In this document: positions 2,429 to 4,275 of the stretch, piece by piece
Layout: the number at the start of each line of letters is the position of its first letter
Position numbering within the stretch: the stretch's first letter is position 1
Notes under the pieces: model-generated
Database searches by the model: none
Told to the model about the DNA's origin: nothing
Seen by the model: only the letters and a program-made list of their open reading frames with translations
DNA from: Escherichia phage SholemSchwarzbard
Length of the DNA stretch: 64,000 bases
Reading direction: 5' to 3' (one strand)
Sequence record: PP925840.1
Position numbers and translations under genes: made by a program

Positions 2429-2458
2429 ATTATACCACATCCTTGTGGTAAAGTAAAC
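2429..2458 (-). promoter_or_regulatory. T4-type early promoter (GTTTAC-N18-TATAAT on minus strand)
   Basis: plus strand attata 2429-2434 and gtaaac 2453-2458, spacer 18; about 20 nt upstream of rIIA.1 start. Confidence 0.55.
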
Positions 2459-4275
2459 TACTGGCTCATCCATTCTTTACGAAGGTCAGCATTATCTCCC
2501 ATGAGCATTTCAAAAAGCTCTTTCCAATTCTCAGGAAGTTTAACAACATCATATACTGGGTTTTGAATCATCTCACGATATTCAGATTTTTCCAAAGAGC
2601 CAAGTCCCTTAATATAACGGATGCTATGTTTAGGTAGAGCATCTTTAGCACTCTCATATTCAGCGACTGTATAAAACCATTCTTGTTTTTTACCGACCTG
2701 AGCGATGATTACAGGAGTTTTGACGAAGCGAATTCTTCCTTGTTCAAACAGTTCTGGCCAATTACTAAAAAATCCGAGCAGAGAAGGATAAATGCTTCCT
2801 AAACCATCATGGTCAGCATCGGTCATAATAGCAATATTATGATAATTCAAGTTTTCAGCTTTTTCACCAAGAACTAATCCAGTGATTGCGCAAATATCAA
2901 ATAGTTCTTTGTTTTTAAGCATATCAGCATATGACATACCCCAACTGTTGAGAACTTTACCGCGCAATGGATAACCACCATGAAGTTCTTTATCACGAAC
3001 ATCAATAAGATATCCGATAGCAGAATCACCCTCAGTCAAGAAAAGAGTAGTATCAGCATCTTTACCGCAAAGATTCGCTTTGATATGTTTATGAACCTTT
3101 GCCTTAGAAGCCTTTTTAGCTGCTTTAGTTTCAGCTGCTTTTTCTGCTGCCAATTTACGAGCTAGTGCAGCTTCAATAATTGGCATTAAAATTGCTTCAT
3201 TATTTAAAATAGCGCGTGAAATCTTTTTAGCGTCAAGTTGAATATGACTACGAATTTCGCCAAATGGAGAAGTCAAACGCTCTTTAGTTTGAGAATCAAA
3301 TCGCATGTTTTTCATATCACGAACAAACATAACGATAGTCAAACATTCTTTGACACGTGCTTTAGTTACATCAATTTTGAACTTACGTTTGATTTGTGGA
3401 ATAAGGTCTTCACAAATATCATCCATAACACAGTCAATGTGATGGCCACCATTCTTAGTGTGAATGTTATTCACGTAAGTTAATTGACGAAATCCATCCG
3501 GCGAACGACCAACCGCAATAGAACAATTTTCTTGTTCTTGAACAATAGCATGTTCATCATACTGTCGTGCATATTTCTTAAAATTGCCCTGAACCTTTTT
3601 ACCATTAAAGGTAAATTGAATATCAGGATAAACAACAGCAAGTGTCTGGAGACGATCTAGCGTAATGTCAAGATAAACTTGGGACAGCTCATTAGTTTCA
3701 AATGACATAAAATCAGGAATGAAAGTAACACGGGTTCCTTTCCATTTTCCAGGAATATCTTCCCATGATTTATTTTCCATGCCGTTTGAACAACGAACTA
3801 CAATATTATTTTGACCATCGCCAGTTTCACCAACAAACATCACAGAAAAAATGTTTGTCAAACTAGAACCAACGCCATTCATACCACCGGTGACACGTTC
3901 TTTATCATCACCAAAGTTACCACCCGCTTTTGGAATAGTCCAAGCAGCAACTGGACCAGGAATTTCTTCACCGGTAGGTGTTTTAACCATCGCTTGTGGA
4001 ATACCGCGACCGTTATCTTCAACTGTTACCTGATTATTTTTAATGGTAACATTAATTTTATTTGCGAATTTAAACTTAGTACGAATACCTTCATCTACTG
4101 AGTTATCGATAATTTCATCAATAAGCTTAACAAGACCAGGTACATACTGAACACTTTCCCATTTACCAAACAGAAAGCGCTCATGCATTTCATTAGCTGA
4201 AGAGCCAATGTACATGCCGCTACGCTTTTTGATATGTTCAATATCGCTCAGAATTTTAATTTCATTCTTAATCAT
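2458..4275 (-). CDS. 39: DNA topoisomerase II large subunit, uninterrupted fusion equivalent to T4 gp39 plus gp60
   Basis: 605-606 aa continuous ORF; GHKL ATPase motifs (EDNGRGIP, GGMNGVGSS) then TOPRIM-like DxD region (IMTDADHDG); track start is GTG at 4278, ATG at 4275 gives MIKNEIKILSD. Confidence 0.9.
   Translation of the reverse strand: MIKNEIKILSDIEHIKKRSGMYIGSSANEMHERFLFGKWESVQYVPGLVKLIDEIIDNSVDEGIRTKFKFANKINVTIKNNQVTVEDNGRGIPQAMVKTPTGEEIPGPVAAWTIPKAGGNFGDDKERVTGGMNGVGSSLTNIFSVMFVGETGDGQNNIVVRCSNGMENKSWEDIPGKWKGTRVTFIPDFMSFETNELSQVYLDITLDRLQTLAVVYPDIQFTFNGKKVQGNFKKYARQYDEHAIVQEQENCSIAVGRSPDGFRQLTYVNNIHTKNGGHHIDCVMDDICEDLIPQIKRKFKIDVTKARVKECLTIVMFVRDMKNMRFDSQTKERLTSPFGEIRSHIQLDAKKISRAILNNEAILMPIIEAALARKLAAEKAAETKAAKKASKAKVHKHIKANLCGKDADTTLFLTEGDSAIGYLIDVRDKELHGGYPLRGKVLNSWGMSYADMLKNKELFDICAITGLVLGEKAENLNYHNIAIMTDADHDGLGSIYPSLLGFFSNWPELFEQGRIRFVKTPVIIAQVGKKQEWFYTVAEYESAKDALPKHSIRYIKGLGSLEKSEYREMIQNPVYDVVKLPENWKELFEMLMGDNADLRKEWMSQ

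Follow-up and report, generated by a model that had tools for sequence, protein, structure and literature searches.

The segment at 2458..4275 on the minus strand of the DNA analysed here, a stretch of 64 kb to which we refer as the window, is almost certainly the uninvaded gene 39 of a T4-like (Tequatrovirus) phage, in which one polypeptide of 605 aa carries the GHKL ATPase, the transducer and a complete TOPRIM domain, and from which the MobA cassette is missing. This reading is built on direct observation of the continuity of the ORF, its colinearity with the T4 proteins, its domain content, the absence of the cassette and the frequency of the arrangement in the phage population, and we found no point that contradicts it.

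The window corresponds to the conventional start of a T4-like (Tequatrovirus) genome and opens with rIIA, rIIA.1, 39 and 39.1, a gene order common to T4, RB3, T2 and T6. Its near relatives are all Tequatrovirus phages with Escherichia, Shigella and related hosts, and the best match over 25 kb in the phage collection reaches 97.1%.

Reading frame and domains of gene 39

For this locus the ORF list shows one ORF, on the minus strand at 2458..4278; it encodes 606 aa when read from a GTG and 605 aa when read from the ATG at 4275, closes with a TAG stop codon at 2460-2458 and contains no internal stops across 2458..4275. The ATG at 4275 is the likely start of the gene because the GAGGA element at 4286-4282 lies 6 nt from it, compared with only 3 nt from the GTG, and the equivalent ATG is used as the start of gene 39 in the annotations of T4, RB3, T2 and T6. 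The TATAAT hexamer at 4303..4308 is a putative promoter element of the gene. The features of this region are the following:

12..2189, minus strand: rIIA, coordinates shared with the T4 RefSeq
2200..2403: rIIA.1 (Pfam T4_RIIA1), coordinates shared with the T4 RefSeq
2458..4275, minus strand: gene 39, uninterrupted, predicted large (GyrB-like) subunit of the phage type II DNA topoisomerase (ORF, Pfam, PHROG, identity to RB3/T2/T6, PDB 8ylu_C)
2464..2721, minus strand: TOPRIM-associated C-terminal domain, aa 519-604 (Pfam TOPRIM_C, 30.7 bits, cut-off 29)
2800..3048, minus strand: TOPRIM domain, aa 410-492 (motifs, sub-threshold Pfam Toprim and contiguity in the T6 gp39 structure)
3124..3528, minus strand: transducer domain DNA_gyraseB, aa 250-384 (Pfam PF00204, 51.1 bits, cut-off 27)
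3829..4137, minus strand: GHKL (Bergerat-fold) ATP-binding domain, aa 47-149 (Pfam HATPase_c, 38.3 bits, cut-off 26.4)
4282..4286, minus strand: Shine-Dalgarno sequence GAGGA, 6 nt upstream of the ATG at 4275 (direct sequence reading)
4303..4308, minus strand: TATAAT, a -10-like hexamer upstream of gene 39 (direct sequence reading)

Within the protein, HATPase_c, DNA_gyraseB and TOPRIM_C exceed their curated Pfam cut-offs, and the Toprim model stays below its own (17.5 bits versus a cut-off of 23.1, aa 410-492), as is common in this diverged phage family. All the catalytic motifs were found on reading the sequence: the GHKL boxes EIIDNSVDE, DNGRGIP and GGMNGVGSS (N-box, G-box), the QTK loop SQTKERL (aa 329-335), and the acidic residues of the TOPRIM domain, with E416 in TEGDSA and D486/D488/D490 in DADHD (486-490). 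The protein hence combines a GHKL ATPase, a transducer with its QTK loop and a TOPRIM glutamate with a DxD cluster, the sequence features of a B-type subunit of type IIA topoisomerases, and over residues 1-605 it matches PHROG 543, 'DNA topoisomerase II large subunit' (E 2.4e-295).

The same protein is found, nearly unaltered, in close relatives. It is identical at 605/605 aa to the annotated gp39 of RB3 (AIT72739.1), from which its DNA differs at 46 positions, and it departs from T2 gp39 at one residue (F70L) and from T6 gp39 at two (D173T, Q526H), with 71 DNA differences in either comparison; the nucleotide identity of gene 39 to the RB3, T2 and T6 genes is 96.1-97.5%. Since 0-2 amino acid differences accompany 46-71 differences in the DNA, nearly all of the substitutions are synonymous, which indicates strong purifying selection. 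Furthermore, the protein aligns over 1-605 with chain 8ylu_C of the solved cryo-EM structure of T6 gp39 (1385 bits). A preliminary description of this DNA had placed at 2458-4275, without stating the strand, a continuous 605-aa ORF extending over the GHKL ATPase and a TOPRIM-like segment. The coordinates are the same here, and the continuity is borne out by the absence of internal stops, by the Pfam domains and by the full identity to RB3.

A discrepancy within T4 itself was noted just before the QTK loop, where codons 326-328 of gene 39 read LIR in the RefSeq entry NC_000866, versus FDS in the window (3292..3300), in T4T and in RB3. Only NC_000866 presents a -1 and a +1 indel, 7 nt apart, at these codons, and its LIR is most likely an old sequencing error.

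Two further observations concern the neighbouring genes. Residues 43-143 of rIIA yield a sub-threshold match to HATPase_c_3, of the GHKL ATPase family (22.2 bits versus a cut-off of 25, E 1.6e-4), so that the adjacent rIIA and gene 39 may both have Bergerat-fold domains. Between 39.1 and 39.2, a 123-aa ORF at 4610..4981 on the minus strand, with a weakly goF-like N-terminus, matches PHROG 622, of unknown function. This ORF is missing from T4 but occurs in RB3 and T6, and the T2 annotation has a shorter ORF at the corresponding position.

The unoccupied cassette site

In the T4 annotation, gene 60 is a two-piece join at 2458..2990 with a 50-nt bypass feature at 2803..2852, and is followed by 60.1 at 2971..3351, mobA at 3654..3767 (a pseudogene fragment) and gene 39 at 3778..5328. 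In the T4 reference, mobA, the gene of an HNH homing endonuclease, is annotated as pseudogene pieces, 60.1 and mobA; in T4T it is an intact gene of 272 aa. The protein encoded in the window is colinear with the two T4 products: its residues 1-473 correspond to residues 1-473 of T4 gp39 (466/473 identical, 99%), and its residues 472-605 correspond to residues 27-160 of T4 gp60 (128/134 identical, 96%), with ~477-605 matching gp60 32-160. The T4 split point falls between A473 and E474 (window numbering), inside the TOPRIM domain: T4 gp39 retains E416, the TOPRIM glutamate, in addition to the GHKL ATPase and the transducer, and gp60 has the DxDxD residues (D486-D490) and the C-terminal tail. The T4 bypass site likewise falls inside the TOPRIM domain.

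At the nucleotide level, blastn aligned window 1..2806 with T4 1..2806 and window 2858..4607 with T4 3911..5661, with breakpoints at which window 2858 equals T4 3911 and window 2802 equals T4 2802. Between these breakpoints, about 1.1 kb of T4 (2803..3910) faces just 55 nt of plain coding sequence in the window (2803..2857), placing the cassette junctions at 2858|2857 (5') and 2803|2802 (3'). Two features were defined on this basis:

2803..2857, minus strand: unoccupied MobA-cassette site of 55 nt, consisting of the last base of the A473 codon and E474-G491 (blastn and global alignment)
2800..2808, minus strand: equivalent of the T4 take-off and landing sites, GAT GGT TTA (D490 G491 L492), uninterrupted (codon table)

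The 55-nt segment shares 64% identity with its counterpart in T4 (T4 2853..2907), a value that rises to 91% and 95% in the 55 nt on either side, and the global alignment sets window 2807..2849 against T4 2857..2899 with only 32/43 identities. The segment is of the parental type (aa 474-491), being 54/55 identical to T2 and to RB3. The MobA element has been described as a 1097-1106 nt insert between Topo2L aa 466-473 and D490/G491, made up of a C-terminal extension, MobA, an N-terminal extension, 'HomR' and a bypass cassette, in which 'HomR' duplicates the deleted target with 67-81% identity to the parental sequence (bioRxiv 10.1101/2022.08.31.505936). The alignment of T4 with the window matches this published anatomy. 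The mobA insertion is not separate from the bypass gap; the two belong to one mobile cassette, which carries its own diverged copy of the 55-nt target (bioRxiv 10.1101/2022.08.31.505936, citing Bonocora et al. 2011).

These results both support and modify the preliminary description of the T4 locus. Its statement that the T4 gene is split by mobA, as previously reported (PMC2988022), agrees with the colinearity of gp39 and gp60 with the protein of the window and with the absence of the cassette here, but the split lies inside the TOPRIM domain and not between the ATPase and TOPRIM segments. Similarly, both mobA and the 50-nt bypass are indeed present in T4, but as a single mobile cassette rather than as the products of two separate events.

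At the position equivalent to the T4 bypass, the codons of the window read GAT GGT TTA GGA (D490-G491-L492-G493), compared with GAT GGA [TAG...50 nt...GGA] TTA in T4. No take-off hairpin is formed at this position, where the local RNA fold is no better than that of shuffled sequences (z = -0.09); in the same fold comparison, the T4 bypass site folds into the take-off hairpin GGAUAGCCUUCGGGCUAUCU, a 10-bp stem-loop. The 50-nt gap sequence of T4 has only short, chance-level matches in the window and none inside gene 39 (blastn-short), and the view that no in-frame stop, hairpin or gap occupies the bypass position, already advanced from the sequence alone, is thus sustained. Furthermore, no MobA homolog was detected in the whole 64-kb window by tblastn with the intact 272-aa MobA of T4T (best E = 0.81), and no remnants of the C-terminal or N-terminal extensions are present in the alignment of the protein with T4 gp39 and gp60.

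The two loci are therefore alike in encoding orthologous enzymes between the same flanking genes, at coordinates that are equal up to 2802. T4 alone presents a stop and restart with a 43-aa C-terminal extension on gp39 and a ~30-aa N-terminal extension on gp60 (~70 extra residues together), mobA/60.1 between the two halves, a diverged copy of the target segment, and a 50-nt gap with its GGA codons, UAG stop and take-off stem-loop, whereas the window lacks all of these elements.

The notion of a bypass gap or take-off hairpin relocated to another part of the window was also considered and rejected. A single match to the hairpin core, with two mismatches, was obtained at 52469-52482 (GAGCCTTCGGGCTC); it is unrelated and of chance level, as matches of this kind appeared in 10 of 100 shuffles. 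This sequence (52469..52482, minus strand) and AAAGGCCTTCGGGCCTTT (4328..4345, minus strand) are hairpins with GC stems and CTTCGG/TTCG loops. Both occur where genes end and resemble terminators or stability hairpins; their loops are of the type seen in the T4 take-off hairpin, but they have no relation to bypassing.

Other differences from T4 in the window

Searches with T4 proteins (tblastn) revealed no homologs of SegF, Dam, SegA, beta-gt, MobB, MobC, I-TevII or MobD in the 64-kb window, nor any of DenV or IPIII, which could sit beyond the window end. The T4 positions examined for missing homologs were 15606-17625, 23570-25455, 37885-38679, 42906-43538, 44836-45612, 56429-57208 and 64939-66415. 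Every T4 homing endonuclease tested is absent from the 64-kb stretch, as are the dam methyltransferase and denV, and nrdD is without an intron (I-TevII being absent). The unoccupied mobA site fits this scarcity of T4-type mobile elements in the window.

The window does contain a homing endonuclease ORF that is absent from T4. It lies between gene 45 and rpbA (30770..31657, minus strand, 295 aa; PHROG 655, E 4e-33), where T4 has only ~51 nt, appears GIY-YIG-like at its N-terminus when inspected by eye, and is present in only 24 phage records, at 95-100% identity. In place of the T4 segA and beta-gt genes, a 282-aa beta-glucosyl-HMC-alpha-glucosyltransferase is encoded at 22344..23192 on the minus strand (PHROG 842, E 2e-89; Pfam TAGT), which would imply DNA glucosylation of the T2/T6 type and not of the T4 type.

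Gene 56 (dCTPase; 15850..16365, minus strand) shows ~74% protein and 77% DNA identity to T4, versus ~95% for its neighbours. It adjoins the T4 segF position, which is occupied in the window by two small ORFs (15478..15651 and 15623..15847). The T4 denV-ipII-ipIII block is replaced by two ORFs of 157 and 105 aa (62322..62795 and 62812..63129, minus strand), which have only weak similarity to ipII (E 2e-4) and both start with MKTYQEFI, a type of N-terminus that we take to be the capsid-targeting sequence of T4 internal proteins. At the T4 mobD position (53494..54464, minus strand), the window encodes two proteins. One, of 148 aa, is a predicted membrane protein (PHROG 944); the other, of 173 aa, is y05I-like (Pfam T4_y05I_N/C) and appears to be a paralog of the neighbouring ORF of 181 aa (54471..55016).

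Origin of the unsplit gene and comparison with known topoisomerases

The uninterrupted locus is present in 519 of the 537 matching phage records, and only 43 records of the phage collection contain the T4 cassette. Human TOP2A/B, yeast Top2 and bacterial ParE each align with the protein as a single stretch over residues ~10-603. The unsplit gene 39 is hence both the outgroup state and the commoner state among sequenced relatives and, with outgroup enzymes contiguous across the T4 split point and a majority of unsplit records, the T4 arrangement can be regarded as derived by insertion. When the comparison proposed in the preliminary description was made, by aligning the locus to T4 (genes 39, 60 and mobA) and to the T2, T6 and RB3 homologs, it returned an unsplit gene 39. 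The interpretation given there, that this is the unsplit state of the locus, is upheld by the colinearity with T4 gp39 and gp60 in the absence of both the mobA cassette and the 50-nt gap, with the addition that this is also the commoner state. The unsplit state had already been described for T2 and T6 (PMC11461880, PMC2988022), and its occurrence here is for this reason not new.

An alternative reading is that the gene was restored secondarily, in a lineage that formerly contained the MobA/bypass cassette and from which it later disappeared, through either precise deletion or recombination with a relative that had not been invaded. We consider this very improbable. Although cycles of gain and loss are known for homing endonuclease elements and relatives with a degraded or lost endonuclease have been reported (bioRxiv 10.1101/2022.08.31.505936), the 55-nt segment is of the parental type (54/55 to T2 and RB3) and not of the HomR type (64% to the T4 copy), and it lies in a gene with no traces of the extensions, which lineages that have lost the endonuclease keep (bioRxiv 10.1101/2022.08.31.505936). 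No sequence evidence points to a clean purge of the cassette. T-even phages recombine freely, and the window is mosaic relative to T4; recombination of the whole allele would be traceless, yet the functional state would be the same. If restoration had taken place, the allele would represent a snapshot of the loss phase in the homing-endonuclease cycle, with the function of the gene unchanged.

The chance that the continuous frame is an artefact, either a pseudogene or an assembly or ORF-calling error bridging a real frameshift or stop, is smaller still and close to nil; we found no points in its favour. The gene has no internal stops, equals the T2, T6 and RB3 genes in product length with 0-2 amino acid differences, and aligns in full with the solved structure 8ylu_C, while the predominance of synonymous changes among the 46-71 DNA differences indicates purifying selection and not a pseudogene. 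The preliminary description raised the possibility that the ORF conceals a frameshift or stop; this is rejected in view of the 605/605 identity to RB3 in spite of 46 nucleotide differences.

As the product of an uninvaded gene 39, the protein is expected, by homology with T6 and T2, to be the large partner in a Topo II of two subunits, forming with a GyrA-like gp52 an A2B2 ATP-dependent DNA-relaxing topoisomerase that would serve phage DNA replication. The T4 topoisomerase relaxes DNA and does not supercoil it, and the enzyme of this phage would do likewise. In T4, gene 52 is located near the other genome end, next to rIIB, a position beyond this 64-kb window. The Topo II of T2 and T6 consists of two subunits and that of T4 of three, and T6 gp39 combined with gp52 is active in ATP-dependent relaxation (PMC11461880). 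The MobA cassette, present in T4 and in a minority of its relatives, splits the gene into 39 and 60, adds ~70 residues and brings in the 50-nt bypass gap. Both the two-subunit T2/T6-type topoisomerase and the origin of the T4 39/60 split through this cassette are documented (PMC11461880, PMC2988022, bioRxiv 10.1101/2022.08.31.505936 citing Bonocora et al. 2011).

The allele in the window is probably a cleavable MobA recipient site in mixed infection, given that its 55-nt target is of the parental type and nearly identical (54/55) to that of T2, and the phage may thus be a potential recipient of the cassette. Nicking by MobA has been reported in T2 (bioRxiv 10.1101/2022.08.31.505936). The gene itself is ordinary, already annotated, structurally characterised and already known, and the use of the locus is limited to that of a clean 'empty site' comparator, which fixes the cassette boundaries at 2858|2857 and 2803|2802.

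Compared with the gene 39 of RB3, T2 and T6, for the last of which the solved gp39 structures include 8ylu and 8yo1, the gene described here has equal length (605 aa), the same position (rIIA - rIIA.1 - 39 - 39.1) and the same domain order, and its divergence is confined to the synonymous level in the DNA, with no functional difference apparent. With bacterial GyrB/ParE and the N-terminal half of eukaryotic Topo II, to which it aligns as one stretch over residues ~5-603 (E 1e-36 to 1e-59), it has in common the architecture of GHKL ATPase, transducer and TOPRIM, but the sequences are distant and the phage protein is smaller than GyrB.
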